From Geosiphon pyriformis uo1 (lineage: Eukaryota; Fungi; Glomeromycota): a DNA stretch of 64,000 nucleotides. Made by a program: the position numbers and the translations under genes. The stretch spans positions 868,001 through 932,000 of the forward strand of contig JAAOMT010000295.1 of assembly GCA_016748015.1 (NCBI GenBank), written 5' to 3'. The first letter of the stretch is position 1. Every line of letters starts with the position of its first letter. Positions 6,069 through 64,000 of the stretch are shown here, piece after piece. Under the pieces are notes generated by a model. It ran no database searches. It had not been told where the DNA came from and was given only the letters and a program-made list of their open reading frames with translations.

Positions 6069-6683
6069 TTAAATTATAGTTTTTTTTTATTATTTAATTA
6101 TAAAACTTTTAAAACTTTAGATAATAAAAAATTTAATTGTTTTTTTATTTATTTTTGAGAATATTTTATGATTTTATAAGATTAGTATTTGTCTAAAATT
6201 AACAAAAAAATCATTAATTAATAAGTTACTTTTACTTAATTAATTATCTTTATTATCTTAAATATTGATTTATTTGTATAATATAACCAATAAAAAAATC
6301 AAAAAATATGTATTACAAATAGAATAACAAAGATAAATATAATTGCTTATAGTTAAAAAACAATAGACATTATATTTAAGTATTTTAATCTTATTACAAT
6401 ACTTTAATATATAAAACAAGTTTAAGTAATAATTATTTTTTTTTTGTTATAGATAAAAACCTTATTATTTTTTGTGAGAAAAATAGCTGTTTTTTTATGT
6501 TATTTAAATAAACAACAGAAAGTGTTTTTTATATTTTTTAATATTAAAAAAGTATTAATATATTAAAACTTCTTTCTTTCTTACTCCCAAAAAACCCCAA
6601 CGAGTTATTTTCTGAAGAAGAAGTTTTTGTTTTTCTCTTATTAGTATTATATCAATATTTTTTTAACTAATAACTCTTTTGTC

Positions 6684-22471: not shown

Positions 22472-22579
22472 TGATCATTGACCTGATCAATAACTTGACC
22501 ATTGACCTGACTGTTGATCTGATCAATGACCTGATCATTGATCTGATCATTGACCTGATCATTGATCTAATTATTGACC
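22472..22579 (+). repeat. 12-bp tandem array (TGATCATTGACC) near the 5' end (U3) of LTR-B
   Basis: 9 units here, 5 units at 29509-29568 and 6 units in each B2 LTR. Confidence 0.9.
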
Positions 22580-23108
22580 ACTTTTGATAGCTATATAAGT
22601 GATAAATCTTTTAGCTATAGAAAAGCATGTAATAACAAGCATCTAAATAATCAAGAATAAATAAAATAACAACTTTCATCTCAATCCTTCTCTTATCGCT
22701 AATTTCCCTTTCCTTACCTTCAAGTATCTGAACATCTTAAAGATAAAAGATTGGTCTTTTCCTGACATATATAATTGTAGCATTTGAAGATTATTTGAAT
22801 AAATGTAACTAAAAAGCACAAGTTGATATCTGATATTAAATTCTAAGAGCACCGACGTGAGACATAGAATTATACCAGTGGTGATCAATTGTTGACAATA
22901 CAGACTATCTCTCTACCTTCAGATTCCCCAGTTACCTTTGAAAAAAATAGCGACTGAGATATTTTATGAGACTGATCTCGCACATTAAATCCATACTCAT
23001 TCAATTCACTCTTTAAAGTTGAATTCCCCTTTGATTATTTTAATCACTCTACAATCCTGTTTTCTCTTACTATCCGTTAGCTTGTTACTCCAACCCATAA
23101 CATAAAAG

Positions 23109-23125
23109 TGGTGTTCTCTGTGAGG
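23109..23125 (+). promoter_or_regulatory. Primer-binding site of family B (consensus TGGTGCTCCCTGTGAGG; elongator tRNA-Met-like)
   Basis: TGG starts after a 6-nt spacer behind the LTR end, with a less decayed copy at 58195-58211 (-). The tRNA identity is inferred from similarity to eukaryotic elongator tRNA-Met 3' ends. Confidence 0.7.
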
Positions 23126-23154
23126 TTGTCAAAATTCACTTATTTCCTTATTGT

Positions 23155-24705
23155 ATGGGTAATTATTTATACTTGTCACAGCAATCAGAAGAACACTTTG
23201 CAGCACACAACAGAAATGACTTAGAGTTTATTGAACTCAATCCTCTGCCTTTCTGCTTGATCTGTTTTTCTGTTGAAGAACAATCCAGTAGACAATTCCA
23301 AAACTTTTGGAACTGGTTCTTGAATGAACATTCAGCTAAAACCTACACAGCTTATACTATCTATTACTTTGATCAAGCTTATTTTGAAGACAATTTTGAA
23401 GAAAGAAATACCAGCATCAATCAGCTCTTATACTCCACAATCTTTGAACAACAGCCTCCTGATTTCGAATATCTGAATCACCAAATCCATATTTGGATTG
23501 CTGGTCACCAACTAGCTAAAAACCCCTTTAAAACAGAAGAAAAAAGTTACCAAACTGCCCCTATTTTTGATATTTTCTCAAGTGAATCAGAGCACTTCAC
23601 ACAAACAATAACTCCTGAACCAATGGCCCAAGATCCAATACAAGCAAACATCCTGGCTGCCCTTCAAGGTATACAAACTGCCTTGGGACGAAAAAACAAC
23701 ACTCCACTATCATTATTCAGAGGCAATGCACAAGATCCAATTGAATAGTTGAATGACTTTGAAAGAGCTGCTACAGCCAACCAATACGATGATGAGTACA
23801 AGTTTCAAATTGTTGGTGGCTATTTCCAAGACTCTCTTGCTATCTGGTTCTCACAGGAAACTAATGTTAATGCCCATCAAAGAATCATTAGATGGATGTC
23901 AGCAAATGCTGGAAAAAACAACACCTTTTTTACAACCTGGTTTGAAAACAAGTTCAGAACCCCAATCTTGATATCCAAGTGGCGCATAGAATTAGAAAAA
24001 AGAATTCAAGGCCCTGATGAAATTGTAACTGAATATGCTAAAGCAATCAGAAAGTTAATCAAGCATGTAGACTCTGGAAGAAATTGGACAGAAGAACAAA
24101 AGATTCATTCCTTCACAAAAAGATTAAGAACCAATTTATCTTATGCTCTTTGGCCTCTTTTGGCTCTGAAAGACAATCCTACAATGGACATGGTCATTGA
24201 ACTTGCCCAACAAATTAAAAACAACCAAAGAATATATTTGGGATCTACACTTCCAGTTTTTGCTTCTGCTCTTGTCATGGCTTTTGCCCCTTAAATGGCT
24301 ACTGCCTCTTTTGCTGCCCAAACTCAAGATACAAATGAACAATTAATTGATAAATTCACAGCCAATCTTGCCCAGTTATTAGAACTTTTGGCACAAGCAG
24401 TTAGAGATAACCAACAACCACAAAGACCCAAATATAAACCACGTTTTAATCAGTCCCAGCAACCTTCTTATCATAGACAGCAAAATTGTGGTCCTTCTAT
24501 ATGTTATAGATGTGGATTAACTGAATATTTCTTAAGAAATTGCAACAATCCTCCTTTATCTCCTCCAGTTTCCAGAAATAATAACAATTAAAACAATAGA
24601 CCCATCAACAATAATGCTCCCAATCAAAGACCCAACTATGCCAACATCAATTTCTTTGGAGAAGATCCTCTAGTTGAAGCCACTGTTTATCAGCCTTTAA
24701 ACTAG
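23155..24705 (+). pseudogene. B1 Gag (N-terminal extension, capsid, CCHC knuckle)
   Basis: One frame with isolated stops. Motifs FRGNAQDPIE.LNDFERAA, QGPDEIVTEY and CYRCGLTEYFLRNC. Confidence 0.85.
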
Positions 24706-28795: not shown

Positions 28796-29452
28796 ATGAA
28801 CAATTATTTTCTGGATCAAAACATTCAAAACACTTTCTATACTCTTCATGAGTATTGGATTAAAAACTATTCAAATGCTACTTTGACCATTGGAAAACAA
28901 ACTACAATAACTAACAACAATGGAACACATACTGTTATTAGACCAAAAAAAACAACTACCAGAAAAGAAAGAATTGGTAGCAAAATAGATAAATATTTGC
29001 TAGAAAATATAACAGCAGCAATACTTGCACCTTTCATCACAATTGGAAAAACAATTAAAAAAATTTTGCCCATAGACAAAAACTTGTCATATGGAAGACA
29101 ACTAGAACTCTATAGTTGCCTTGGTGAAATCATAGAAGACATGAAGCTTATGAAGAAAACAACTTCTAAAATACAAGTGGAAATTTTGGACATTGTATAA
29201 TTAGATGTTCTAAGAGTTTTGACCATTGCAAAAAGAGTTAAAACTTTAATACAAAGATTTGGTCTCTTAAATACAAAACTTATTTTATCTTAAGTATTAT
29301 ATACTTTATCCACAAAAAACTTCAACAAACTAGTTAGTTTTGAGTTAAATAAAACCCTTCAAATAGAGTATTCTCTAAATAGTTTGATTTTGCCGGAGCT
29401 CAATCTCTTTGGAGAGAATGATGTTATGGTTAAGACCTATACTTCTTATTAA
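28796..29452 (+). pseudogene. B1 ORF3: unknown ~218-aa protein in the env position
   Basis: MNNYFLDQNIQN... stays in one frame with two CAA>TAA stops. It is conserved with B2 51867-52523 and ends inside the 3' LTR. Confidence 0.8.
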
Positions 29453-32400
29453 TTATTACATGTATTAGCCACTAATGTCATATGATTAGTCATACTATTT
29501 TTAGAAAGTGATCATTGACCTGATCAATAACCTGATCATTGATCTGATCATTGACTTAATCATTGACCACTTTTGATAGCTATATAAGTGATGAATCTCT
29601 TAGCTGTAGAAAAGCATGTAATAACAAGCATCTGAATAATCAAGAATAAATAAAATAACAACTTTCATCTCAATTTTTCTCTTATTACTAATTTCTCTTT
29701 CCCTACCTTTAAGTATCTAAACATCTTAAAAATAAAAGATTACTTGTTGGCCTTTTTCTGACATATATAATTGTAGCATTTGAAGATTATTTGAATAAAC
29801 ATGACTGAAAAGCACAAGTTGATACCTGATATTGAATTCTAAGAGCGCCAATGTGAGGCATAGAATTATACTAGTAGTGATCAATTGTTGACAGTACAGA
29901 CTATCCCTCTACTTTCAGATCTCCAGTTATCTTTGAAAAAAATAGTGATTAAGATATTTTATGAGACTGATCTTACACATTGAATCCATACTTATTCAAT
30001 TTGCTCTTTAAAGTTGAATTCTCCTTTGATTATTTCTATCATCCTACAATCTTGTTCTCTCTTGCTATCCATTAGCTTGTTATTTTAACTTGTAACAATA
30101 CATTTTGGTAAACTACAAGTTATTTCTACAAATTATTGATTATTTCAGCAAATTTTCATTAATTTCGGCAAATTTTGACTATATTAAATGGTTCAGAATA
30201 TTGTGTAATTTGATCATTTTAATTTTTATGGTACAAATTGAATTATTGATTAAATAATGATATTTGATAATTTGGTTAAATAATAAGTAATAATTGAAAT
30301 AATAATAATATATGCTAATTAATAATAAGAATTATGAGGATAATTTCATACTAATTAATAGTTAAAATTTTACTGGTAATATCACAAAAAACTTAGTAAC
30401 ACCAAGAAGTCAAACTATGCTATTTAACAACTCAGTTGCCGAGCTATAACATAAATTATATATTATTTTATTATTACTCACCAAGCCAGTTCTTTTTATC
30501 TTAGTTCTAAACTTAGTTTTATCCAGCCAAACCAGTGAACAATACTTCATTACTAGTTAATTCACAAAAGAAACAACAACTGCTAAAGCTTTTTTCTTAG
30601 TTTCAAATATTACTATTGCTTTTATGTACCAGTCTTTAAGCACAAAACTCTTACAGATTACAGCATACAAGCCCACATTTACTGAGTATTGAGAGAATGT
30701 TTTCAGTACTGCAAAAGATAAATAATTACAGACATTGATGTTACAAATAATTATTTGGGGTCTCTAATTAAATAACAAACTTATAACTTAGTGTTTAATA
30801 GCTGTAATTTATGGTAATGTTTGAAGGTTTTATAATCTAAAGGTTTTGGTTGAGTCTTTTGTATAATGAACATAAATTTAATGGTGTGTAATTTTTTTGT
30901 AATGCATTTTTCAATTTTTTTCTTCAGCTTGGTGGTTAATTTATTCTGGCAGTCATGCTTTTCTGGTAAGCTATTCAATTTTCATTTTGTATCCTTCTAT
31001 TCAGGTCTTTTACCAGACTATTTATGATGTCAATAATTTAGTGCTTAATTCTTTAATCAATTAATAAACAACAACAAAAATAAAATACAAAAAAAATTAA
31101 AGAAATAAAATATAAGCCAAGACAATAAAGTTAGTATCCTATCAATAGCCATAATCAAAAGCTATTGTTTTAGTGTGATTAAGTATTCAATATTATTAAC
31201 ATGAAGTGTTAATAATGGGGAAAGTAATTTAGATGATAAATAATTATTTATTAATATTAATAATTTTAATAGAGATGTGATAAATGGAAAAGTATTGGTA
31301 ATTATTCTCCCTTTTTTGCTTCTAATGCTCTTGCTATATATACATAATTTAGGTTCTATAAGATTACTCACATTCCTGAGTAATGTGCTATAATTTCTTG
31401 AGTAATGTGCTTATGTGCTAACTACTACTTTCTTATTGGTCTATTTGTTTTCTTACTATTTTTTTTATATGTTTTTTTTATGAGTAATATTGTTATGAGT
31501 TGGAATAATAAGCTAACAGTATTACCAGAGGTTTTTGGTCTCTTTTCTTAAATGTTGTCGATGCTTGTTTGCTGTGAATTCACGTTTTCTGGATGTGGTT
31601 AAACCTCCAGTAACTGAATTTATCTTGAAATTATTTCCTATAATTTGAGCTGCTGGGCTTATGAGTGGAATGGCCAATTCCATGCCAGTTACTTTATGTA
31701 GTTATGTTGTAGTAAACGTCAACTTTTTCCCAGAAATTGCTCATCTGAAAGCTCACTAAAATGTATAGTTACTTTGCTGTAAAAGTCAACTCTTCTACAG
31801 AAATCTTGTCTGTAGGCTACCCTAATGATTATGATAATAAAAGAAAAGAAAATAAAAGAAAAGGAAAGAAAAAGAAGAAATAAGGAATTGATTTGTTAAA
31901 GTCGTTTTGGATCCAGGCCTGGAAGTGTTTTAACAGTCTACTGAAATTGGTAGCTAATCAATTTCAAACTGTTAGTTGTGTTTTTAAGGATTTTCCAAGT
32001 GCAATAATTTAAAAAATTTGGTTTTTCGAATTATTTGATATTTATTTCTTTTTGTGTGTGTAGAAATGGTTCTAAGTGATAAATCTAAAGTAAGATACAT
32101 TTTCTCAAAGAGAGAAGCTCTTCTTTTTATACAACTTGTTGTAACACTATTCTATGAACTTGAACTTTGCTATTTTCTACAATTTTGCTGAACTAAAGAT
32201 ACATTTTGGTGAACTACAAGTTATTTCTGCGAACTATTAGATATTTCAGTGAACTATCAATTATTTCGGCGAATTTCTATAAATTTCGGTGAACTTTTGA
32301 ATGTTACATAGTTCAGGGTATTGCATGATTGATCATTGCAATTAGGTTACATTTATGTTGTGTACAATTTGGGTTATTAATTAAATGATAATTTCGGATA

Positions 32401-32461: not shown

Positions 32462-33157
32462 TTATAAGATAGTTTCATGCTCAATGATATCTCTAATTTC
32501 GTTTGATAACATAACCTCCTTCTCAAGACTGAGCTCCGTCAAAGTCCAAGTACTGTTTGTTATTTCCAGATAATAATCCAAAATTATTGAAGAAATTTGG
32601 TCTGAAAATTGTTGAAATTTCAGTTCTGTGAGCTTTTCAATGTATTGAATCTTCAAAGGTTGAAAAATTGGGTTTTGTAGTACATTTTCACAGGTGTGGA
32701 ATAGGTCATAAAGTCTAAGAGCAGCTCTGAGCCTGTAGTGACTGTTTGTTGATCCAGCTATTGTCTTGAATTCATTGTGGAGTTGTTTCTGAATAGCTTC
32801 TTTTGTGAGGTTTGCTGTTGTAAGTTCCAATTTCCGTTCGTAGAGTGTTTTTTCAATGTGAAAATATCTATAGATTGGAGAATATTCAGTGTTTTTCTCA
32901 TTGCGACACAGTTGAAATTTTTGTTGAATTGTAGTATTTGGTGGAATACTAATCAGAGTGAGCATTAGATTTTCTCTTAAAGCAAGCTTTAAAAGTTCTG
33001 GCAGGTGAATTCCAGTATAACTTCTTGTGTTCTTTTTATACGGGTAATATTTTTGTGAATTTGGGGCTAAATTTGTAACTACTTCTGTTTAGGTATAATT
33101 AATGTGGTTTCTAGTAACAGTAATAGATGATTCGGGTATTGTTTTTAAAGCTAACAT
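32462..33157 (-). pseudogene. A1 ORF3: unknown protein in the env position
   Basis: Closely matches A2 43442-44113 (YRYFHIEKTLYERKLEL..RLRAALRLYDLF). Confidence 0.82.
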
Positions 33158-33320
33158 TAGTTTTTGGGATAATTGTTGAATGTTTTAAAGAATAGTCATT
33201 ATAAGCAATTTGAAATAAAAGAAAATTATTTTTGGTGCATGGGTTTTTATGTTATTTTTGTTTTGTTTTTGTGAGATTGTTTTTAAATTATAAGAAGATA
33301 ACTATAATAATTAATTTAAA

Positions 33321-35215: not shown

Positions 35216-35899
35216 TTTTACCAGACAAAATTAGAGATATCATTTAGCATGAAATTATCTCATAATTCCTATCATTAATTAGCATATATTATCGTTTCAA
35301 ATTATCACTTATTACATTAGCAAAGAATGTCCGAAATTATCATTTAATTAATAACCCAAATTGTACACAACACAAATGTAACCTAATTGCGATGATCAAT
35401 CATGCAATACCCCAAACTATGTAACATTCAAAAGTTCACCGAAATTTATAGAAATTCACTGAAATAATTGATAGTTTACCGAAATATCTAATAGTTCACA
35501 GAAATAACTTGTAGTTTGCCGAAATGTATCTTTAGTTCAGCGAAATTGTAGAAAATAGCAAAGTTCAAGTTCATAGAATAGTGTTATGACAAGTTGTATA
35601 AAAGAAGAGCTTCTCTCTTCAAAAAAATGTATCTTACTTTATATTTGTCACTTAGAACCATTCATACACACACAGAAAAAAAATAAATATCAAATAATTT
35701 GAAAAACCAAATTCTTTAATTATTGCACTTGGAAAATCCCCAAAACCCAACTAACGTTTTGAAATTGATTAGCTACCAATTTCAGTAAACTGTTAGTGAC
35801 TCCAGGCCTGGATAGAAAACATTTCCCTTAATAAAATCCTATTTCTTTTACACTTCTTTTATTTTTCTTTTCTTTTTTTATTACAATTATTAGGGTAGC

Positions 35900-36063
35900 C
35901 TACAGACAAAATTCCTGTAGAAGAGTTGACTTTCACAGCAAAGTAACTACACATTTTTAGTGAGCTTCCAGACAAGCAATTCCTGGGAAAGAGTTGACGT
36001 TTACTACAACGTAACTACATAAAGCAACTGGCATGGAATTGGCCATTCCACTCATAAGCCCAG
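35900..36063 (+). promoter_or_regulatory. Duplicated hairpin module in the 3' part of LTR-A (putative structured RNA element)
   Basis: AGTT-G-ACTTT-CACAGC-AAAGT-AACT (35924-35948) and AGTT-G-ACGTT-TACTAC-AACGT-AACT (35992-36016), each preceded by a CAG..CTG stem. Present in all five LTR-A copies. Confidence 0.6.
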
Positions 36064-36241
36064 CAAGTTCAAATTATAGAAGATAATATGAAGTTAAAAA
36101 TTCAGTCACTAGAGGTTCAACCACACCCAGAAAACGTGAATTCACAGCAAATAAGTATTAACAACATTACAGAAAAGAGACCAAAAACCTCCGGTAATAT
36201 TTGGTGCTCTCCCATGGAAATAACACAGCAACAAATTCAAA

Positions 36242-39200
36242 GTGGCGACTGCCTCAGACATCACAACCTTAAAGTATTATCAATTAATTTACACACACTA
36301 CAAACAACAATTTGAAATACACGATGGAATCATAGCTTTCAAGAAAACACTTTTTCAATACATCGAAAATCAAATCAATGACTACCTCTTTGGGAACTAT
36401 AACATTACAACAGTTAAAAGAGATCTTCTTGAGAACATACTACACTATTCTAACACTGAATTAGAAAACATTAGTGCTGAAGCTTGCGCTACTTATTTTG
36501 AGGAACTCGATTATAATATTATTTGATTCTGTGAAGAAAAATATCTTGCAAATGCACAATTTGCCTTTGAATTCGAATTTGATCCTGAAACCAGTAGCAA
36601 CAAAAGACAAAAAGATAACCGACCTGTTCACACAACACCCAATACTCCCAAAATATCATTCAAACATCTACAAACATCTGAACAAAAAACCAGCTCAAAA
36701 CTTCCACTTACTATCATACCTTTTCCAGCTTCACTTGCACAAGCACAAACATTTAATTCACCCTTGAATCAATTTGCAAGACCAGAAGATTTTACATCAC
36801 TCAGAAGTCCCACCAGACAACAAGAACCTCTTCAAACTAGTTCCAATCTCCTTGATTTTCTAGCTGAAAATCAAAGTGAACACTCTGAGACAGCAGCAAA
36901 CGAAGAAAACAACTCTGAAATAACTGAAAAAGAATCAATAGACAGTGAAAACGAAGAAGACAAAATGACAACATACATCACAAAAATCCCTGACTTTAAT
37001 GGAGAAAACATTGAGACCAGTCCTCAAAAATGGCTCGACCAAGTTACTAAAGCTGGAGATGCAAATGGATGGAATGCCACCAGAATGTTAAGAACAATTC
37101 CATACTTTCTCAAAGAAACAGCAGGAGAATGGTTTGAAAACCTGGCCGCCCCATTCAATGATTGGAACGCTTTCAAAGCAGCCTTCCTTGAACAGTTCAC
37201 CGACAATAATACCTCCATCACTCTTCGCAATCGTTTTCAAAATATCAAACAAGAACCCTCTGAATCTGTTATGACTTATATTGGGAAATTCAACAAACTT
37301 CTCAGATGGATTTGCCAACTCGAGACAAATGATTATTATTCTGATGCTCAAATCTTGGATCAATTTATTGCTGGTCTAAAAGATAAACTAATTAAAAAGG
37401 TTTGCCCACACGCGCCAGAAGATTTAAACTCTGTCATACAGCATGCGAAAAGATACGAAATGCCCATGGAAGAGGCCAATCATACAAAACTTGTAAATTT
37501 GGCAATTGGAGAAACCAGCTCAGCAGCTGAGGAAAAAATTGACCAACTCACAAAGAAGGTCGAAAACTATTTTACCAACCAACAACAACAAAGATATCAA
37601 CCACCCCAAAGACGAAATCAAAATAACTTTGCACCACTTTTCAATAACCAGCTCCAGAATTGCCATTACTGTGGAATCTCTGGCCACTGGAAAAGAGATT
37701 GCAGAAAGTTACAATGAGACCAACAAAATAGGGATAATTAATGTTACTCTCCACCACAGCAATCTTATTATCAACCATTACCACCAGCTTACTATCCACC
37801 AAAACCCCAATACCAAAATAACTATTATCAGCCCACTCCACAACCAATCCAACAGCAATACCAACAACCACCCACACAACATTATCAAGTACCTGCTCAA
37901 AGACTGATTACACAAAATCAATTCACACCACAAAACTGATACCAAGTAAACAACAGTAGAATCAGTTCAAACAACCAATTGGTTCCCCGAAATACCACTC
38001 AACTAAGACCTAACCACTACCACACTCAACCCAGTTATTTAACAATGCCAGAAGAACAGGATTTTCACCATACTGCACTCTCGGAAGGTAGAGCTACAGC
38101 ACAACAACAACAAAACCCTTCTCATAACCACACCACAATTCCACCAGCCCAAATTGCTGAAAACACCAATCTCTCTGATATCTTTCCTTTCAAATTTGAA
38201 GCAAATGAATCACCATTCTTGCTTAGCAATACAGCGGCTAATGAGCAAAAAGCCATCACTGCAATGTACACAGAAGCTGAAGTAAAAGGAAAACCAATTC
38301 ACTTGATCCTAGACAGTAGATCCGCCGGAAGCATTATCACCTACCAGTTGATACAACAGTTGAAAAAAAATGTCAACCGACCAGCTCAAACAGTAATTGT
38401 CACTGCTGATGGCATGAAAAAGACCCCAGTAGGAGAAATTGACAATTTTCTGTTCACTCTTGATGGAATTACCATTCCAGTCAAAGTTCTTGTAATGAAT
38501 GCACCCCAATACCAAGCTCTCGTCAGAAATGATTGGCTTCAAAAAGCCAATGCTAATCTGAATTGGGAAACACAAGAGTTAACAATCTCCTACCAAGAAC
38601 AACACGCCCAGGTACCTGCCATTTGTGATACATTCAACAAACGCTCTGAAAAAGCCCCAGCTTTTGAATTCGAACTGGAAGAGAAAAAACCCCTCATTGA
38701 AACATTCATGGCTCTTGGATCAATGTCCAACTGGGCCGATGAAACAGAACAAAAACATTTTACTCCACACTCTGAACCCGAAACCTCTGGATAAAATATC
38801 CCTTACTCAAAACCCAAACCAAGGAAACAACACCCCTATATTTCCCTTAAATGTAAGAACTGCCACAAAAAACTATCGTCAATGAGAGCCTGCATTTCAC
38901 CTGAAGAAGAATATGAGAATCATACTTGTTATTACTGCAAGGCTTGCCACAGAGAGTGATGGGGCCATCTAATAAAAAGGAGCAGAAAATGGGACAACAC
39001 CCTTTGTTTGACTTGTGGAGATATGCTACTGGAAGAATGCAATTGGATTGATGTAGCAATGAGAGGAGGCATCTGTGATCAGACCTGCCAATATGCTTTA
39101 TCAATTTCAGAAAAAGTAAAAAGAGGAACACCCTTTAATGCAGCATACAATAGTGCTTTCAACAAACTTTATTACTACCCTCATGATGCTGAGATGATTT

Positions 39201-41844
39201 TCGACTTAGCAATGGCATTAATTAATGGAGCTACCAAAGAAGATGTTTGTTAATGAAGGAAGCAGAATATATTGAATACACTATAGAATTAGCTGGATTC
39301 GATTACGAAGATGAAGTAGAAGTCTACCACCAAATTGCAAGTCACACCTATCCAACTCAAAAAGCTCAAATTCAATGATTAGAGCAAATGAACATTAGGC
39401 TATGTGAAGAATGCATTATGTCTTGTAATGAACAATGGTGTTCTGAATGCTATGCTCTTAGTATCCCCTTGCCCAGCGAAAATAATGAGAATGAAATTGA
39501 ATTTGGAGAACCTAAAGAAACGGAAGAAATTGAAACAACACCCATCTACCTTATCGAAAATCAGCCTGCCTTACAACTTAAATATTTCAACAACAACGGA
39601 CAAGAAATAAAACCTGAAAAAGCACACGAAATTGATGCTGGATATGACCTAAGATATCCAGGCAAGGATACTCTTGTTCTCAAACCCAAATCTCTCACAA
39701 AAATCAATCTCAAAATTGCACTCGAAATCCTGCTAGGAGCAATAGTTCAAATTGCCTCCCGGTCCTCTCTGGCAAGCAAAGGAATCAATGTTAGAGGAAG
39801 AATAATTGATGCTGGATATATTGGAGACATAACAGTGATGCTTCAAAATAAAACTGACAAACCATTCAAGATCGAACATGCTGAAAAAATTGCCCAAGCT
39901 ATTTACCTACCCTTAATCAACATTTCGGGTTTGCAACTAGTCAATCAAAGAGAACAATTAGGAAAAAGCGATAGAGGAACCCAAGGTTTTGGTTCAACTG
40001 GACGATTCACAGTTCCAGTTAATATAGCACTTAACACACAGAATGAATCCCATCAGATTCTCAGACTTCCACAACCGATTACTATCTCACCCTTTGAAAA
40101 ACATCCAGAAATCTACACCTGCCCAAAGTCAACAACCACACAACAAATTTTTGAGTCCAATGAACAAGTCTGCTTGGAACATAATATTTTGATCCCAAAC
40201 ATTTATATTCTAGAAGGAACAAAGAAAGTCCGAGTTACTTTTTACAACCCCAATAATTACCCCATAATTTTATTAAATAATTTAGAAATTGGAGTTATTC
40301 ACAGTAATATATTTCAACAAGAATTACCCCAAATAGTTCCCAATTTCTCTGAAATTATTGGACATTCAATACCAAAAACCAACCCAAACCCCAGCTCCGA
40401 AAACTACTATGTTGTCATGGAAAAACTATCTCAAATCAACATGGGACAACTTGAACCACAACAACAGACCCAGCTCAAAGAGCTAATTGCAGAATTTGCT
40501 GACATCTTTGCTGAAAACAACAATGACTTAGGAAGAACTGATTTGGTTTAACACCAAATCTATATAGGAGATGCCAAACCAAGACAACAACAAGCCTACC
40601 GAGTTGTCCCAGAAAGTCACCAATTTATCTGAGAAGAAGTACAACGGATGCTTAACAATGGGCTTATTCAATCATCAATGAGCCCATGGGTCTCACCTGT
40701 GGTCCTAGTTAAAAAGAAAAATGGAAAGATACGATTTTGTGTTGATTACCAACAACTCAACAATGTCACCATTGGGGATGCCTACCCTCTTCCCCGAATT
40801 GATGACATGTTGGATGTTCTTGAAAAGTCCAAATACTTTTCAACATTAGATTTAGAGAGTGGATACTGGCAAGTTGCTATGGATCCCAAAGACCGCCCCA
40901 AAACAGCATTCACCACTCAAGGAGGAAATTACGAGTTCAATGTAATGCCTTTTGGATTATGCAATGCACCAGCAACATTCCAAAGACTCATGGATGTTGT
41001 TTACAAAGGCCTCTTTTGGAAATCAGTAGTAGTTTATCTTGATGACACTGATGTTTATTCACCATTTTTTGAGCTACATTTAATTCACCTGCGAGAAGTT
41101 TTTCAACGATTACGGAAAGCAGGATTGAAACTGAACATTGAAAAATGCTACTTTGGAAAAACAAGTTTAGCTTTTCTTGGTCACATTGTTAGCAAAGATA
41201 GAATTAAACCAGACCCCAGAAAAATCAGTACTGTCAAGAACTTTAAGACTCCACAAAATACCACAGAATTAAGAGGATTTATTGGATTAGCATCCTATTA
41301 CTGAAAATTCATCAAAAGATTCTCAGAAATTACAAAACCCCTCAACCAGCTCACTACTAAAAATGTTGAATACAAATAGACAGAAGAACACCAAAATGCC
41401 TTTGAGATACTTAAGAAAAAACTCACAACAGCTCCAATCTTCGCCTACCCAGATTTCAGCAACTGATTCCGGTTAGCAACTGACACCTCTTATACTGCCT
41501 TTGGTGCCATCCTATCACAGTTAAATGACAATGGAAATGAGCGAGTAATTGCTTATGCTAGTAGAACATTAAAGCCAGCCAAAAAGAACTACCCCGCAAC
41601 AGAATTAGAAACCGCAGCAGTAATCTGGGCCCTACATCACTTCAACCTTTATCTCAGACCCAAAGAATTTGATATTATCACTAATAATATTGAACTTAAA
41701 TGGCTTCAAAACAAAAACACCCAGCTGAACGCAAAACAAACCCAATGGACAGGATTTTTAGCTAATTACCAATACATCGTATACCACAAACCAGGAAAAC
41801 TCTACACCAATGTTGATTGTCTCTCAAGAATGAGACAAGATTAG
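36242..41844 (+). pseudogene. A2 Gag-PR-(Cys-rich)-dUTPase-RT-RNase H polyprotein, single ancestral ORF of ~1870 codons
   Basis: One frame from 36242 to 39253, a 1-nt deletion relative to A1, then one frame to the stop at 41842-41844. Motifs CHYCGISGHWKRDC, LILDS(G>R)SAGSII, dUTPase I-V (DAGYDLR, ASRSSLA, IIDAGY, KIAQAI, RGTQGFGSTG) and VYLDDT. Confidence 0.92.
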
Positions 41845-41893
41845 AAAACAAAACCAACACCCATTTGAATTAACAGCATCAAAACAACAAACA

Positions 41894-43279
41894 ATAAACC
41901 CTGAAAACTACAACAATCTCAAACAATATTTGGAGACATTAACAATCCCAACAGATTGGTCCCCAGATGAAAAACATCGGTTACAACAACAAGCCAAACA
42001 ATATTTTCTATACAACAACATTATCTATCATCGAAATTCCAAAAACCCAACCAAACCACTCAGATTAATACAAAAACAGAAAAAAGAGACCATTTTATAC
42101 AATATGCACTCAGATCCTTCATCAGCACACTTCGGAAAAGATAGCACCATTCAAAGAACACTAGAATACTACTTTTGGCCTCAAATGAGAAAAGACATTC
42201 ACAAATATGTCGAATCTTGTGATAGTTGTCAAAAAAGAGGAGGAACTCACCCTACAGAACCTTTAAATCCAATCAAAGTTGGACAGCCTTTTGACAGAGT
42301 TGGTATCAATTTAGTTGAACCACTATCTATTACCACTTAAGAAAACTGTTATATTGCAGTAGCTGTAGACTATCTTACTAAATGGCCTGAAGCCAGAGCC
42401 ATTTAACGAGCAGATGCAAAATCAGTAGCAAATTTCATCTACGAAGACATCATTTGTAGACATAGATGTCCAATTGAACTTTTATCCGATCAGGGAACAC
42501 ACTTTGTGAACAATCTGATACAAAAAATTTGTGAACAATTCAATATCAAAAGACCTCTGTTTTCACCCTACCATCCACAAACAAACAGACTTGTGGAACG
42601 TTTTAACAGAACATTGTGTGAGTCATTAGCCAAAGTCTCAACCGATTTTGAGCAAGAATGGGATCTCTTTATTCTATTAGTGTTACTAACATATAGGACA
42701 TTAAAACAAGATACCACGAAACACACACCATTTGATTTAACTTATGGAAGGACAGTAACACTACCAATTAAGTTCACAGTGGAAACATACCCAGCACAAC
42801 CAATCAATAAAAACAATTTCCAAGAAACGCTTCAGCAAAGAGCCTACACTCTGCTTAGCACATTGGAAAGAAAATGACAAATAGCAGCCACCCATATTGA
42901 ACACTCCCAAGCTCAACAAAAAGAACAGCATGATGACAAATTGCCTTCAGTCACCAATAAATTCAAAATTGGAAACAAAGTTCTCTTACACAGAACTAAA
43001 GCTGAAAAACAATGGAGTGGAAAATTTGAAAATAAATGGAATAGACCATTCTTTATCCATGAAGTCCTAGGCAATGGATTATACAAGCTAAGACTTGATG
43101 ACAAAATCCTAGCAAAAGTTGCACATGGAGATTGTTTGAAACACTATCATTCCAGAAACAATCCTGAATTATTAATTCCACAAATTGGTACACATTCCCC
43201 TTTGGTCAGTCCTGAAGATATTCTCCGAAACTTAGAACCAATAGTTGTCATTGAACAACCTTCCAACCTGAACACTTAA
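41894..43279 (+). pseudogene. A2 integrase as a separate ORF (start ATG decayed to ATA)
   Basis: ATA at 41894 aligns with the A1 ATG. HHCC, SDQG, QTN.LVERFNRT, WN(G>R)PFFI..GNGLYKL; ends EPIVVIEQPSNLNT*. Confidence 0.88.
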
Positions 43280-43441
43280 TTTAATTTTACTAGTTATTCT
43301 CTTATAATTTAGAAACAATCTCACAAAAACAAAACAAAACAAAAATAACATAAAAACCCATACACCAAAAATAATTTTTTATTTTTTCAATTGCTTATAA
43401 TGACTATTCCTTAAAACATTCAACAATTATCCCAAAAACTA

Positions 43442-44113
43442 ATGTTAGCTTTAAAAACAATACCTGAATTATCTATTACTGTTACTGGAAACTACATAAA
43501 TTATACCCAAACAGAAGTAGTTACAAATTTAGCCCCAAATTCACGAAAATATTACCTGTATAAAAAGAACACAAGAAGTTATACTGGAATTCACCTGCCA
43601 GAACTTTTAAAGCTTGCTTTAAAAGAAAACCTAATGCTCACTCCAATTAGTATTCCACCAAATACTACAATTCAACAAAAACTTCAACTGTGTCACAATG
43701 AGGAAAACACTGAATATCCTCCAATCTATAGATATTTTTACATTGGAAAAACACTTTACAAATGGAAACTGGAACTTACAACAGCAAACCTCACAAAAGA
43801 AGCTATTCAGAAACAACTCCACAACGAATTCAAGACAACAGCTGGTTCAACAAACAGTTGCTACAGGCTTAGAGCTGCTCTTAGACTTTATGACCTATTC
43901 CACACCTGTGAAAACGTACTACAAAACCAAATTTTTCAACCTTTGAAGATTCAATACATTGGAAAGCTCACAGAACTGAAATTTCAACAATTTTCAGACC
44001 AAATTTCTTCAATAATTTTGGATTATTATCTGGAAATAACAGACAGTACTTGGACTTTGATAGAGCTCAGTTTTGAGAAAGAGGTTATGTTACCAGATGA
44101 AATTATCTCATAA
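43442..44113 (+). CDS. A2 ORF3: unknown 223-aa protein in the env position, frame still open
   Basis: Uninterrupted ORF conserved with A1 that crosses the PPT into the 3' LTR. No signal peptide or transmembrane stretch is visible. Confidence 0.8.
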   Translation: MLALKTIPELSITVTGNYINYTQTEVVTNLAPNSRKYYLYKKNTRSYTGIHLPELLKLALKENLMLTPISIPPNTTIQQKLQLCHNEENTEYPPIYRYFYIGKTLYKWKLELTTANLTKEAIQKQLHNEFKTTAGSTNSCYRLRAALRLYDLFHTCENVLQNQIFQPLKIQYIGKLTELKFQQFSDQISSIILDYYLEITDSTWTLIELSFEKEVMLPDEIIS

Positions 44114-44281
44114 TTCCTATCATTAATTAGCATATATTATCATTTCAAATTATCACTTATTACTTAGCAAAGAATGTCCGAAATTATCATTTAATTAATA
44201 ACCCAAATTGTATACAACACAAATGTAACCTAATTGCGATGATCAATCATGCAATACTCCAAACTATGTAACATTCAAAAG

Positions 44282-44392
44282 TTCGCCAAAATTTATAAAA
44301 ATTCGCCGAAATAATTGATAGTTCACCAAAATATCTAATAGTTTGCAGAAATAATTTGTAGTTTGCCGAAATGTATCTTTAATTCAGTGAAA
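44282..44392 (+). repeat. Six TTCGCCGAA-type palindromic sites at 20-bp period in LTR-A
   Basis: Units start at 44282, 44302, 44322, 44342, 44362 and 44383, and the array recurs in the other LTR-A copies. It lies upstream of a TATA-like tgtataaaag (~44442). Confidence 0.8.
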
Positions 44393-45046
44393 TTGTAGAA
44401 AATAGCAAAGTTCAAGTTCATAGAATAGTGTTACGACAAGTTGTATAAAAGAAGAGCTTCTCTCTTCGAGAAAATGTATCTTACTTTAGATTTATCACTT
44501 AGAACCATTCATACACACACAGAAAAAAAATAAATATCAAATAATTTGAAAAACCAAATTCTTTAATTATTGCACTTGGAAAATCTCCAAAACCCAACTA
44601 ATGTTTTGAAATTGATTAGCTACCAATTTCAGTAAACTGTTAGTGATTCCAGGCCTGGATAGAAAACGTTTCCCTTGATAAAATCCTATTTCTTTTACAC
44701 TTTTTTTATTTTTTTTTTCTTTTCTTATTACAATCATTAGGGTAGCCTACAGACGAGATTCCTGTAGAAAAGTTGACTTTCACAGCAAAGTAACTACACA
44801 TTTTTAGTGAGCTTCCAGATGAGCAATTCCTGGGAAAGAGTTGACATTTACTACAACGTAACTACATAAAGCAACTGGCATGGAATTGGCCATTCCACTC
44901 ATAAGCCCAGCAAGTTCAAATTATAGGAGATAATTTGAAGTTAAAAATTCAGTTACTGGAGGTTCAACCACACCCAGGAAACGTGAATTCACAGCAAATA
45001 AGTATCAACAACATTACAGAAAAGAGACCAAAAACCTTCAGTAACA

Positions 45047-48000
45047 TTGGTAGTCCATTTGTATTCCACGTTTTTGGTGGTGAGCTGGTTGAGGGGTTTT
45101 GCAATTTCCGAGAATCTTTTGATAAACTTCCGATAGTAGGATGCTAATCCTATGAATCCTCTTAGTTCTGTAGTATTTCGTAAAACTTTGAAGTTCTTAA
45201 CAGCACTGATTTTTCTTGGATCTGGTTTAACTTCTTCTTCACTAACTATGTGACCAAGAAAGGCCAAACTTGTTTTTCCAAAATGCCATTTTTCAATGTT
45301 TAGTTTTAATCCTGCTCTATGTAATCATTAAAAAACTTCTCGCAGGTGAATTAAATGAAGTCTAAAAGATGGGGAATAAACATCAGTGTTATCAAGATAG
45401 ACAACTACTGATTTCCGAAGGAGTCCAGCATATACAACATCCATGAGTCTTTGGAATGTTGCTGGCGCATTGCATAATCCAAAGGGCATTACATTAAATT
45501 CGTAGTTTCCTTCTTGTGTTGTGAATGCTGTTTTGGGGTGGTTCTTGGGATCCATGGCAACTTGCCAGTATCTGCTTTCTAGATCTAATGTTGAAAAGTA
45601 TTTAGATTTTCCAAGGGCATCTAACATGTCATTGATTCATGGAAGAGGATAAGCATCCCCAATAGTGACACTGTTGAGTTGTTGATAATCAACACAAAAT
45701 CGTATCTTTCTATTCTTCTTTTTAACTAGGACTACTGGTGAGGCCCATAGACTCATTGATGGTTAGATAAGCCCATTGTTAAGCATTCGTTGTATTTTTC
45801 TCGGATAAATTGGTGGCTTTCTGGAACAACTCGATATGTTTGTTGTCTTCTTGGTTTGGCATCTCCTGTATAAATTTGGTGTTGGACCAGATTGGTTCTT
45901 TCTAAGTCATTGTTGTTTTTAGCAAAGATATCAGCAAATTCTGTAATTAGTTCTTTGAGCTGGGTCTGTTGTTGTGGTTCAAGTTGTTCATATTGATTCG
46001 AGATGGTTTTTCCATGACAACATGGTAGTTTTTGGAGTTGGGGTTTGGATTGATTTTTGGTAGTAAATGTTCAATAATTTCAGAAAAATTGGGGACTGTT
46101 TGGGGTAATTCTTGTTGAAATATGTTACTGTGAATGATTCCAATTTTTAAGTTATTTAATAAAACTATGAGATAATTGTTGGGATTGTAAAAAGTAACTC
46201 AGACTTTCTTTGTTTCTTCTGGAATATAAATGTTTGGGATCGAGATATTATGTTTCAAGCAAATTTGTTCATTTGATTCAAAAATTTGTTGTGTGGTTGT
46301 TGGCTTTTCACAAATGTAAATTTCAGGGTGTTTTTCGAAGTGTGAAATGGTAATTGGTTGTGGAAGTTGTAAAATCTGGTGAGATTCTTTCTGTTCATTG
46401 AGAGCTATGTTTACTGGAACTGTGAAATGTCCAGTTGAACCAAAACCTTGTGTTCCTCTTTCGCTTTTTTCCAACTGTTCTCTTTGATTAACTAATTGTA
46501 AACCTGAAATGTTGATTAAGGGTAGATAGATAGCTTGAGCAATTTTTTCAGCATATCCAATTTTGAAAGATTTATTAGTTTTATTTTGTAACATGACTGT
46601 GATGTCTCCTGTGTATCCAGCATCGATGATTCCTTCTCTAACATTGATTTTTTTGCTTGCCAAGGATGATCGAGAAGCAATTTGAACCATTGCTCTTGGT
46701 GGGATTTTGAGGGCAATTTTGAGGTTGATTTTTGTGAAAGATTTGGGTTTGAGAGTAAGAGTATCTTTTCCTGGATATCTTAGATCATATCCAGCATCAA
46801 TCTCATGGGCTTTTTCTGGTTTTATTTCTTGTCCATTGTTGTTGAAATATTTGAGTTGTAAAGCAGGCTAATTTTCAATGAAATAGATGGGTGTTGTCTC
46901 AATTTCTTTTGTCGCTTCAAGTTCTCCAAATTCAATTTCGTATTCATCATTTTTGCTGGGCAAGAGAATGCTAAAAGCGTAGTATTCAGAATACCACTGT
47001 TTATCACAAGGCATAATACATTCTTCACATAGTCTAATATTTATTTGCTCTAATCATTGAATTTGAGCTTCTTAGGTTGGGTAGATGTGACTTGCAATTT
47101 GGTAGTAGACTTCTACTTTGTCTTCGTAATTGAATTCAGCTAATTCCATAATGTATTCAATGTATTCTGCTTCTTTCATTTGGCGAACATCTTCTTTGGT
47201 AGCTCCATTAATTAATGCCATTGCTAGGTCAAAAATTATTTTGGCATCATAGGGGTAGTGATAAAGTTTGTTGAAAGCACTGTTGTATGCTGCATTAAAG
47301 GGTGTTCCTCTTTTTACTTTTTCTGAAATTGATAAAGCATATTGGCAGGTCTGATCACAGACTTCTCCTCTCATGGCTACATTAATCCAATTGTATTCTT
47401 CCGGTAGCATATCTCTACAAGTCAAACAAGGGGTGTTGTTCCATTTTCTGCTCCTTTTTATTAGATGGCCCCATCGTTCTTTGTGGCAAGCCTTGCAGTA
47501 ATAACAAATATGATTTTCATATTCTTCTTCGGGTGAAATGCAGGCTTCCATTGATGATAGTTTCTTGTGGCAGTCCTTATATTTAAGGGAATATAGGGGC
47601 ATTGTTTCCTTGGTTTGGGTTTTGAGTAAGGGATATTCCATCCAGAGGTTTCGAGTTTAGAGTGTGGGGTAAAATGTTCTTGTTCTGTTTCATCGGCCCA
47701 GTTGGACATTGATCCAAGAGCCATGAATGTTTCAATGAGGGGTTTTTCCTCTTCCGGTTCGAATTCAAAAGCTGGGGCTTTTTCAGAGCATTTGTTGAAT
47801 GTATCACAAATGGCAGGTACCTGGGTGTGTTGTCCTTGATAGGAGATTGTTAACTCTTGTGTTTCCCAATTCAGATTAGCATTGGCTTTTTGAAGCCAAT
47901 CATTTCCAATGAGAGCTTGATATTGGGGTGCGTCCATTACAAGAACTTTGACTGGAATGGTGATTCCATCAAGAGTGAATGGAAAATTGTCAATTTCTCT

Positions 48001-51866: not shown

Positions 51867-52523
51867 TTAATAAGAAGTATAAGTTTCAACTGTAACATCA
51901 TCCTCTCCAAAGAGATTGAGCTCTAGTAAAATTAAGCTATTTATGGTGTAATCTATTGAAAGGGTTTTATCTAACTCAAAGCTAACTAGTTTGTTGAAGT
52001 TTTTTGTCAATAAAGTATATAACACTTGAGGCAAAATGAGTTTAGTATCCAGGAGACCAAATCTTTGTATTAGAGTTTTGGTTCTTCTAGCAATAGTTAA
52101 AACTCTTAAGATATCTAACTGTATAATGCCCAAAATTTCTGCCTGTATCTCTAAAGTTGTTTTTTTCATAAGTTTTATATTCTTTATAATTTCACCAAGG
52201 CGACCATAGAGTTCTAATTGTCTTCCATATAACAAGTTTTTGTCTATGGGTAAGATTTCTTGAAGTGTTTTTCTAATTGTGTTGGAAGGTGGAAATATAG
52301 CTGCTGTTATACTTTTCAACAAATATTTATTCATTTTACTACCAATTTTTTCTCTTCTGGTAGTGGTTTTCTTTGATCTAATAACAGTATGAGTTCCACT
52401 GTTATCAGTTATGGTGGTTTGTTTTCCAATGATCAGAGTAGCATTTGGATAGTTTTTGATCCAATACTCATAAAGAGTATAGAAGGCATTTTAAATGTTT
52501 TGATCCAGAAAATAATTGTTCAT
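51867..52523 (-). pseudogene. B2 ORF3
   Basis: Homologous to B1 28796-29452 (RQLELYGRLGEII..VLTIARRTKTLIQRFG). Confidence 0.8.
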
Positions 52524-58923: not shown

Positions 58924-59589
58924 TTAATATTGAGCTTTATCAAAAACTTTATTTTGAATTAAGTCTAATACTTTTTTTTCTAATACTGTTTGTTTAACTT
59001 TGTTTCTTATATCTTTGATTTGCATCTTGTTTATTCTTCCCCATTGGTTAATGGTGATTGTTTCCATGTTGAAGTGTAACAATATTTCTAGGTAATTTTG
59101 AAATATCATGTGTAGTCAATAGATTGTTCTAATTTGCAATGTTAGATTTGTCTTCTTTCCAATAATATTTTCAATATTCTGTATTATTTCTTAATTGAAT
59201 ATTCTTTTGGCTTTATCAAAATATAATTTCAGAATGTTCAATTTTTGTCCCAACTGATAATAGCAGTATGATATTGGAAGTTGTTCTGTTCATTGTTTTC
59301 AATTATCTTTTGAAAGTTCTTCTGTTAGAACTATGATGAGTATTTTCTTAAAAGTGTTCTTTATTTTCTCTACTATTTTATCTGACCAGTTTCTTGATTG
59401 TTTTTGTGATTGCTGGTATGGTGTACTTTTTTCTTTTTGTTTGGTGTTTTGATAACAGATTGTTTGGTCGTTAATAACAATTTTTATGTTTAATTACTAT
59501 TGACTTAAGGCCTAAAACAATTGTTGAGCCAAGATGTAAATATGATCTGGTATTTCTATTTTTTTTGTTGTTTTTGTTCCATATACCAT
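58924..59589 (-). pseudogene. C ORF3, decayed
   Basis: ATG at 59589 just after the IN stop. Contains YCYYQLGQKL and LHMIFQNYLEIL..ITINQWGRINK, in the same position and of similar size to ORF3 of A and B. Confidence 0.6.
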
Positions 59590-61026: not shown

Positions 61027-64000
61027 TTAGATTTGTTTTATCTGTGACAAACTATTGGCATTTCCGTTTTCTTTTTCCTTTTTGTAATGTACTGTATAAT
61101 TAAATGGTAAAAGTTTTATTTTCCATCTAGCATGGTAATCATCTCCAAATTTTTGTTTCTGAATTGAAGTTAATCTTTTATGGTCAGTGTATATGTCAAA
61201 TTTTTGGCTTAAATATTTTTTCTATTTTATAACTGCTCAATAGATTGCTAAGTGTTCTAGTGCTAAAGTTCTATAGTTTTTTTTCAGCTGGACTTAAGCT
61301 GTAATTAGCATATATTATTGGGTGTTCTCTTCCATTTGGTCTTTTCTAAGATAGTACAGCTTTTAATACTTGACCTGATGCATTAGTTGTGATTATGAAT
61401 GACTTGCTATAATCTGGATAGATTAGTACTAGAACTTGAATAAGCTTTCTTCTTAATGTATCAAAAGCTTTTTGCTGGTTTTCTGTCTATTCATATTTGG
61501 TGTTCTTTGTTTAGAGCTGGTGTAATGGCTGAGCCAGTTTGGAAAAAATTTTAATAAAGTGGCAGTAGTAATCCACAAATTCCAAAAATGCTTATAGTTT
61601 AGTTAAGTTGGTAGGTACTGGAAAGTTTTTAACTATCTTAATTTTGTTTGGATTTGTTTTGATACTGTCTTTGCTCATAATATGTTCCAAAAACTTCAAC
61701 TCTGTTTTTTCGAAGAAACATTTGTTGGTATTTAACTTTAGCTCTGCTCTTTTTAACTTTTCAAATACTTGCTGTAGATTATAAAGATAATCATCAAATA
61801 TTTTTGAGAACACATTGGTATTATCTAAATATATAACTACTGATTTTTATAGTATTTTGGTATAGACAATTTCTATGAGTCATTGGAATGTTGCTGGAGC
61901 ATTCATTAAGCCAAATGGCATTACTTTAAACTCAAAATTTCTCTCTCTTGTTGTGAATACAGTTTTCTTTTTATTAGCTGAATTCATAGCAACTTGCTAA
62001 TAACTGCTATTTAAGTCTAGCATTAAGAACCATTTCTTTTCTTCAAATACATTGAAAAGTTCTTAGATCTTTGAAGTTGGATAGCTATTTCTCTTAATTA
62101 CTCCATTAAGTTTTCGGTAATCCATGCAAAACCAAATTTTCTCATTCTTTTTTCAAACTAATACAACTGGTAAAGATCATAAACTCATAAATAGTTGAAT
62201 TAACTCATTGTCTAACATCTGATTGATTTTTTGTTGAATGATTTTATGGCTTTCTGGTGGTACTTGGTATGTTCTTTGCTTAATTGGTATTGTATCTCCA
62301 GTTTTAATCTAATGTTAGATAATGTCAATTCTGCCAAATTCATTTTTACTGGTAAAGATCTTAGTAAAGTTGTTAGGTAACATTTTTAGTTGCATTCATT
62401 GTAACAGATCTAGGTTTCTTAAATTTATTTGTTCTAATTGTTCTGGTTGGAGCAAATAACATTCTTTCTATCCATATATTGTTTGTAATATGATGTCTAC
62501 CTATCTACAAAGTTGTGAAAAATCTGGAATGATGCTTGGTAATTAGTAATTGGTTATTAATTTTAGTACTTAAATATCTGATTGTAATTCTTTTTGGTAT
62601 CTCAAGAACATCTCCTGTTGTATTGTAGATGAAAATTTTGATGTGTTTAGGGCTTTTGGCTGGTATGTAAAGATTGGTAAGTCTAATTTTTTCTGATTCA
62701 CAAATTGTAATTTCTGCTTTAAACATTTGAGTTTGATTCTTTACTTTTCTTTCTATGGCTAATATGTACTGGCTATATGGTAGAATAAAAATTAATTGAT
62801 GGGTAGAGATAATTTCTTCCTTGTCAATAACCTCTTTCTCTGTTATATTTACTGATACATCTAATTTTTTTATGGATTCAAATCTATTAATCTCTCTGGC
62901 TGTAATTTTTAATTTTTCTCTGTTTTCCACTAATACTAATTGAGCTATTTTAACCAGAGACAGGAATATTGTCTATGCTATCTTTTCATTTGGCTTTATG
63001 ATATAGGCTTTTTCTGAGTCATTTTGTAGTATTGCAATAATATTTCCTACATATTGTGTGTCAATTATTTCTTCTCTAATATTAATTTTTTTTTGCTAAA
63101 CTACTCCTAGATGCTAACTGAACCATTGTTGTAGCTGAGATTTTCAGTGCTACTTTAAGATCAATACAGGTGCATAAATGTAGTGCCAATTTAATGTCAT
63201 TCTTTTCTAAATATTTCAGATCAAATTCTGCATCAGTATCATGCACATGTTCCAGCATAATATCTTTGTTATTTTCATTAAACCATTTGAGTTTTTGCTT
63301 TTTGAAAAGATTAGGGAGCACTATGTATTGGTCTGGGTTTGAATTAGAGTTTAAATTATTGTTGTTAGTTGTAATTGTCATTGTCAGAGTTTGAATTGGG
63401 ATTGAATGTTGATTCTGATTCTGATACACAGCTGCTAATTGGTTCTTCTTCTTCTGGAATTGTGTAGATTATGCATGGTAGTCAATTGTAAATAAGATCA
63501 CACTTATTACAATATTGAAAGTTACATAAAATCAAACAGTAGTTACATAGTCAAGTATTTAGCTGTTCTAACTATTGTTCTTGTTCTTTCCTTGTTTGTG
63601 CCAAGCACTAGTAGTGCTCATAAAATTCTTCTGAATTGTTCTTAACATTGTCAAAAATATCAAAAGTTGGGATGTATTTGGGTTTAGAAAAGAATAATGA
63701 ATTATTTTTAATTTCCAGTAATTCACAGAGAATAGCATCTTCTACTTTTGCACTTGCCATTCTCCAGATCTTATGTTTGTTATGGAGATATCTTTCTAAT
63801 TATTGCAACATTCTTTTCCATGCATTATTAATTAGAGTTTTTTTTTATATCCAGTCATTTATTAAGATAGTATATTGGCACATTTTGTTGTATGTTTCTT
63901 CATGCCAGAAATGTTATTTTATATTTCTTTATTAGATGAAACAAGGTTTATTATCTTATTTTTTTTGTCTTCTTGGTTATTTAAATTATTTTAGAACACA
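61027..64000 (-). pseudogene. C Pol: Cys-rich region, dUTPase, RT, RNase H, decayed; continues beyond window
   Basis: LCNYCLILCNFQYCNKC (~63500-63550), dUTPase ~62870-63250, RT remnant 61592-61813. Ends LSQIKQI* at 61027-61029. Confidence 0.8.

Follow-up and report, generated by a model that had tools for sequence, protein, structure and literature searches.

A family of predicted soluble, helical accessory proteins encoded 3′ of integrase in Ty3/Gypsy retrotransposons of Geosiphon pyriformis

Long terminal repeat (LTR) sequence makes up 41.2% of the Geosiphon pyriformis genome (PMC11952901, in part). We present here an analysis of one window, the 64,000-nucleotide stretch at positions 868,001 to 932,000 of contig JAAOMT010000295.1 (G. 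pyriformis uo1, assembly GCA_016748015.1), much of which is filled by a nested stack of Ty3/Gypsy LTR retrotransposons at 21688-58907, and of the third open reading frame (ORF3) carried by these elements. An exon of a host Na+/H+ exchanger gene lies at 4287-5216 (Pfam, E 1.2e-12). A degenerate non-LTR retrotransposon at 6645-13142 has an endonuclease match (Pfam, E 1.4e-4) and RT- and RNase H-like frames, and similar fragments are present at 176-2070, 13729-14985, and 19954-20382. Within the stack, the insertion point of element B2 coincides with the first base of the 3′ LTR of element C (flanks ATAT/ATAT), element A2/3 sits within the 3′ LTR of B2 (flanks CTGT/CTGT), element A1 lies inside the pol of A2/3 in the opposite direction, and B1 is placed inside an A-type solo LTR. 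A B-type LTR was considered for C and rejected, as the LTR of C begins where B2 has inserted.

A1 (35216-45046) is a Ty3/Gypsy (Metaviridae) element by its LTRs, primer-binding site (PBS), polypurine tract (PPT), gag, and pol order of protease (PR), reverse transcriptase (RT), RNase H (RH), and integrase (IN). The 5′ LTR (35216-36199) and 3′ LTR (44088-45046, forward strand) are 95% identical. The gag gene (36527-37717, forward strand) matches Pfam Retrotrans_gag, Ty3_capsid, and zf-CCHC, and pol is found in pieces at 37940-43279 on the forward strand, with the order PR-dUTPase-RT-RH region-IN. The dUTPase (39379-40551; Pfam, E 1.3e-21) lies between PR and RT (40633-41304), a position also reported in a fungal element (PMC2864245, in part). 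The integrase has an SH3-like region at its C-terminal side and ends at a stop at 43279, and a Pfam search found no chromodomain after it. A-family pol also carries dUTPase at 46199-46867, and C has a dUTPase-like frame (63082-63468); none was noticed in B. Between PR and dUTPase, the A-family pol contains a Cys-rich segment that matches no Pfam family (38800-39400, and 47072-47656 on the reverse strand). PBS-like sequences beginning TGGTG(C/T)TC follow the 5′ LTRs of A (36202-36217) and B (23087-23110), and coding-like frames without a Pfam family above cut-off lie directly after the PBS, 5′ of the capsid-coding region, at 36224-36526 (A) and 23101-23748 (B).

Downstream of integrase, a pyrimidine/AT-rich spacer of 120 nt (43280-43399, forward strand) is followed by ORF3 of A1 (43400-44113, forward strand), which crosses the PPT (44075-44084) and ends within the 3′ LTR. 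The sense frame is open for 223 amino acids (aa) from the ATG at 43442 to 44113. The gene begins at 43400, at an in-frame ATG, rather than at 43442; the A1 copy has a TAA at codon 5, which many ORF3-A relatives read through, giving 239-aa proteins. The original prediction was an ORF of about 220 aa after IN in every element. Such a frame is present in each of the five copies for which the window includes the 3′ region, although none of the five is intact and the A1 start has moved to 43400. Internal stops number one in A1, two in the second A element (32462-33199, reverse strand), two in B1 (28796-29452, forward strand), one in B2 (51867-52523, reverse strand), and seven in C (58924-59559, reverse strand; homologous to A). 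The pol genes of the window copies are likewise broken.

The ORF3s of A and C clearly belong to one family by sequence comparison, because a profile built without C (A4) scores the ORF3 of C at 84 bits (iE 3.8e-27), C aligns pairwise with protein P0270 at z 32, and the A alignment matches an alignment of the further lineages plus C (A3) with an hhalign probability of 99.1 (E 4.9e-19, 193 columns). These further lineages include two from Geosiphon (P0270/P0271 and P0272/P0273); outside Geosiphon, the family has four metagenome members: P0268, P0269, and their close relatives P0275 and P0274. Judged by sequence, four or more lineages belong to the homologous family in addition to A and C. Metagenome contig L001 has a Gypsy pol with an integrase core 65% identical to that of A1; P0269 lies after its RT/RH and IN, and the 3′ end of this ORF3 extends over a PPT and the beginning of an LTR-like sequence. 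ORF3 is intact there while pol has stops. The gene order RT/RH-IN-ORF3-PPT of L001 means that the arrangement is not confined to the window copies. Related-locus scans with A1 gave no match in viral contigs or metagenome contigs, and A4 has no segment of sufficient conservation for such a scan.

A pattern shared by all three versions had been proposed, and the motifs quoted for A, B, and C are all present in the sequences; the pattern stands for A and C, but B is less clear. Searches with hhalign gave no match of ORF3-B to the A/C group, and local pairwise alignment reached z ≤2.6 in 7 pairs. A semi-global profile alignment of B with the A group, collinear from the N-terminus with the PPT-dictated tail removed, scored 56 versus 27.5 ± 6.6 for column shuffles, a z of 4.3 on our own uncalibrated scoring; this score was reached by 0/60 column shuffles and 0/60 block shuffles, and the reversed profile scored 27. 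The alignment fits the first quoted motif, while the second and third fall in another register, and 30 single-sequence global comparisons of B ranged from z -1.1 to 6.8. On these alignments, it is probable but not certain that ORF3-B belongs to the A/C family as a distant member. The C-terminal ELS/ELN...M tail was not counted towards homology, since the PPT region determines its residues.

Word-based searches recovered 202 ORF3-A relatives among 299 candidates and 129 ORF3-B relatives among 258 candidates. Among the 120 relatives listed for each, 119 (A) are G. pyriformis hypothetical proteins and 120 (B) are from G. pyriformis; 74 of the 120 for A are 215 to 245 aa long. An exhaustive profile search gave 35 cluster representatives, among them the two further Geosiphon lineages and metagenome proteins P0268 and P0269, and 7 of the 9 looked up are from Geosiphon. 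The suggested much-expanded Glomeromycota domain is therefore established within Geosiphon only; beyond this genus are the four metagenome proteins and a weak hint from the ESM Atlas (25/30 matches to unnamed clusters, best 0.90, Mucoromycota the commonest taxon, recognition below threshold).

Selection was assessed from copy pairs and from conservation across lineages. The B1-B2 comparison showed purifying selection on ORF3-B, with dN/dS 0.23 (Fisher p 3e-11), a value to be read against an excess of transitions (82/98 substitutions in B, 34/37 in A) that biases simple dN/dS downward even without selection. For comparison, B gag and pol gave 0.12 to 0.30 and off-frame controls 0.48 and 1.04; ORF3-B substitutions per codon position were 37/16/45. 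The window's A pair gives no information on selection: its dN/dS is 0.56 (p 0.15), values are lower off-frame, and its substitutions by codon position are 13/13/11; the codon-position test is itself weak because integrase controls are also non-significant. ORF3 identity among A-group lineages is 21 to 38%, compared with 40 to 65% for the integrase core between families, and we infer selection on the A group from conservation of the frame across families at this identity. A frame kept in place across lineages is a stronger argument for selection than dN/dS. That ORF3 is a passenger without function for the element, either captured or a chance frame, would fit the lack of a selection signal in the A pair and the stops in all five window copies. 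We consider this extremely improbable, given the B value, the frame maintained at 21 to 38% identity, the intact ORF3 of L001 beside a pol with stops, the confident predicted core described below, and the equally broken pol genes of the window copies.

The ORF3 protein is not Env, as had been predicted, because it has no transmembrane (TM) segment and no furin site. By simple sequence scan, a TM anchor, signal peptide, furin site (R-x-K/R-R), and conserved cysteines are absent in 13/13 proteins: Kyte-Doolittle maxima in 19-residue windows are 0.54 to 1.57, with none ≥1.6. The same 13 proteins have 0 to 3 cysteines and pI values of 5.4 to 9.8, i.e., they are not uniformly basic. The prediction of a soluble, helical protein is supported by this hydropathy scan and by AlphaFold. 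The model of A-group ORF3, from 25 diverse sequences (mean pLDDT 69.5, pTM 0.61; an earlier model from a shallow alignment had pLDDT 47 and an empty PDB search), comprises a predicted N-terminal helix and beta-hairpin of low confidence, a loose linker, and a compact helical core at residues 81-170 (block-mean pLDDT 82 to 95). Most conserved columns hold hydrophobic or aromatic residues; G116, K138, G149, T151, and N152 are conserved in addition. Helices 133-148 and 153-167 are predicted to flank the conserved G-x-T-N turn, an arrangement that in the model resembles a helix-turn-helix (HTH).

No described family or fold was matched significantly. Pfam gave no family above cut-off for ORF3; Foldseek with the better model found nothing at E ≤0.001 in PDB or BFVD, the best BFVD match being an uncharacterized phage protein (E 0.058); and an HMM search of PDB sequences gave nothing better than one designed protein (E 0.27). 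The confident core of the structural prediction was thus accompanied by no fold match, which does not show a new fold. PHROGs matches were weak (phrog_23683, unknown function, 11/25 members, best E 0.0012), and tblastn matches in phages and plasmids were at chance level.

Ahead of these searches, we had noted a likeness of ORF3 to DUF1016_N, DUF3102, and ParB-like domains. DUF1016_N (PF17761) is the commonest weak Pfam match (7/36 members at E ≤1, best E 0.015), but its score for P0013 is 14.6 bits versus a gathering cut-off of 32.8, and it was not matched among 7 A3 members or 22 B members. In the Atlas, the core matches DUF6192 (0.90), DUF3102 (0.86), DUF1016_N (0.86), and HTH_3 (0.86); the likeness to DUF3102 and DUF6192 consists of Atlas scores only, with 2 DUF3102 loci retrieved, which is not enough to build a profile. 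In a structure search of 48,161 chains, no chain reached Z 5; the second-ranked chain was Spo0J (Z 4.4, rmsd 4.5, 89 aligned), and the DNA-binding domain of KorB came 28th (Z 3.5, rmsd 6.0, 97 aligned). Values around Z 4 are frequent for helical proteins, and the tool's own note counts Z under about 13 as a chance arrangement for such proteins. The YhcG-N and ParB-HTH profiles match one another (E 2e-5), so these weak leads indicate one group. With shallow core and YhcG-N profiles (Neff about 3.4 to 3.7), hhalign of the core scored 17.0 over 14 columns against YhcG-N (69 of 80 loci used; 8 excluded by hand and 3 by a length filter), compared with a shuffle maximum of 16.2 and 17.4 reversed, and 12.0 against ParB-HTH (29/30 loci used), equal to the shuffle mean of 12.0. 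Both scores are at noise level; in the best, non-significant alignment, the helix with G-x-T-N...RL is paired with the GKDRS...LRLL helix of ParB. The A4 profile matched 0/37 bacterial genomes; a ParB HTH is present in 34 of them. The Pfam, Atlas, and structure leads converge weakly on a ParB/KorB-type HTH group, each below significance. We therefore use "HTH-like" for ORF3 as a lead from sequence and model, with membership in the group not established.

Two other Atlas clusters rank equally high: a closterovirus coat protein (0.89 to 0.91) and a phage translational repressor (0.88 to 0.89). The former, first or second among the matches (0.91 with 138/256 shared features; 0.89), together with the env position of ORF3, would suit a structural or movement protein that carries particles through coenocytic hyphae and replaces Env functionally. 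This seems very improbable in view of the missing TM segment, furin site, and cysteine set, a count of shared features short of the 170 usual for genuine members of a family, and the absence of any viral fold match at E ≤0.001.

The LTRs carry repeat arrays that differ between families and are candidate targets of ORF3. The A-family U3 array has a 20-bp period (44280-44372, forward strand), and the B-family LTR has a 12-bp tandem array of 9 copies of TGATCATTGACC (22472-22579, forward strand). For C, two repeats of 17 to 20 nt lie 22 nt apart at 31372-31413 on the reverse strand, likely in C's own 3′ LTR, displaced by the B2 insertion. L001 has the LTR repeats ATTTGCCCTAGTG. Many LTRs have repeats although their element encodes no protein that binds them. 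The observed/expected ratio of CpG is 0.36 for A1 and 0.10 for B1, versus 0.78 for a host-gene stretch, a loss consistent with methylation; methylation of transposable elements is documented in Rhizophagus (10.1101/2021.03.30.436303, in part).

From sequence, model, and analogy, we tentatively propose that ORF3 binds nucleic acid of its own element, most likely the LTR repeats, and switches on or protects transcription of its own family, a reading that we regard as quite possible. The protein would be made from a spliced or internally started RNA, would be located in the nucleus, and would bind DNA, most likely the family-specific repeats in its own LTR; once bound, it may activate transcription of its own family or shield it from silencing. 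The faster divergence of ORF3 than of integrase would be expected, since such a factor would co-evolve with a changing target. The pI range of 5.4 to 9.8 and the mostly hydrophobic conserved columns count against this reading. A bolder version, which we hold to be improbable, is that a lineage of fungal Metaviridae acquired a ParB/KorB HTH of bacterial type, which then became an anti-silencing trans-activator that binds the LTR of its own family. Such a protein would be the counterpart of VANC or foamy-virus Tas in a retrotransposon, would co-evolve with the LTR array, and may have aided the rise of LTR sequence to 41% of the Geosiphon genome.

A motif, AGCTCA, lies shortly upstream of the PPT (motif and PPT at 44063-44087, forward strand) in 6/6 elements compared (44063-44069 in the window; 3094-3099 in L001). 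In C its reading frame differs, and because it is frame-independent and present in all six elements it is likely a cis DNA or RNA signal, e.g., for plus-strand priming or RNA structure. This motif, the separate 3′ ORF behind a pyrimidine/AT-rich spacer, and the phage translational-repressor cluster in the Atlas would also fit an RNA-binding, Rev- or CERV-like accessory protein, made from a spliced message and promoting export, translation, or packaging of full-length RNA. Precedents are CERV of Cer1 (PMC10309623, in part) and bdelloid ORF3s, which are said to be typically spliced (PMC5408684, in part). We judge this somewhat unlikely, as Pfam, Foldseek, and chain searches gave no sequence or fold likeness to a described RNA-binding family, the weak leads favor DNA-binding HTH domains, and no splice site was established for ORF3.

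Nor is binding to nucleic acid the only role that the window suggests. Its elements are nested in each other's LTRs (B2 in C and A2/3 in B2, with the flanks given above), and the missing chromodomain after integrase may mean that targeting needs another factor. ORF3 could be a protein that associates with integrase or Gag to direct insertion, e.g., into the LTRs of other elements, or to aid nuclear entry of the pre-integration complex. Nesting is expected, however, where LTR sequence is 41% of the genome (PMC11952901, in part), and ORF3 diverges much faster than integrase; we consider such a partner distinctly unlikely and retain binding to the element's own LTR repeats as the working proposal.

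The ORF3s of several Geosiphon Ty3/Gypsy families make up a genuine family of accessory proteins that is under selection and has so far gone undescribed. A literature search of titles and abstract openings found no description of it, and the portion of PMC8778642 consulted makes no mention of it; Geosiphon repeat libraries and supplements may already hold the elements. Additional ORFs have been reported in LTR retrotransposons, most of them without an explanation; here one family persists across many diverged lineages. Each family provides a matched protein and LTR repeat array, and these pairs make the question of retrotransposon counter-silencing directly testable. In addition, hundreds of Geosiphon "hypothetical proteins" are explained as transposon genes; if the function of ORF3 is mundane, the value of this work is mainly in annotation.

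Comparison with known systems places ORF3 beside several types of accessory protein. The helix order of its predicted core is similar to that of the ParB/KorB-type HTH group (Spo0J, KorB, YhcG DUF1016_N, DUF3102, and DUF6192), a likeness below significance; it differs in having no ParB CTPase or PD-(D/E)XK domain and in being carried by a eukaryotic retroelement. Extra ORFs other than env are described in plant Athila/Tat elements (aORFs; PMC11728184, in part), fungal Ty3/Gypsy elements ("add. ORF"; PMC2864245, in part), and bdelloid LTR elements (ORF3s; PMC5408684, in part). Like the 3′ aORFs of Ty3/Gypsy elements, ORF3 is an extra ORF beside gag and pol, conserved within a family and unexplained in function; as far as the portions of these sources describe them, it is set apart by having no TM segment and no Pfam family above cut-off and by forming one family over at least six lineages. 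CERV of Caenorhabditis elegans Cer1 is likewise a non-Env accessory protein and regulates expression of its own element (PMC10309623, in part), but its RNA export function is demonstrated, whereas regulation by ORF3 is a proposal. No Pfam match of ORF3 indicates homology to VANC. The VANDALs that encode VANC proteins are plant DNA transposons. VANC proteins of Arabidopsis VANDAL elements target family-specific tandem repeats and, like ORF3, are fast-diverging, element-encoded proteins found beside such repeats (PMC5735166, in part). The ORF3 elements show a CpG loss consistent with methylation, and binding of ORF3 to the LTR repeats and their demethylation are candidate further likenesses.
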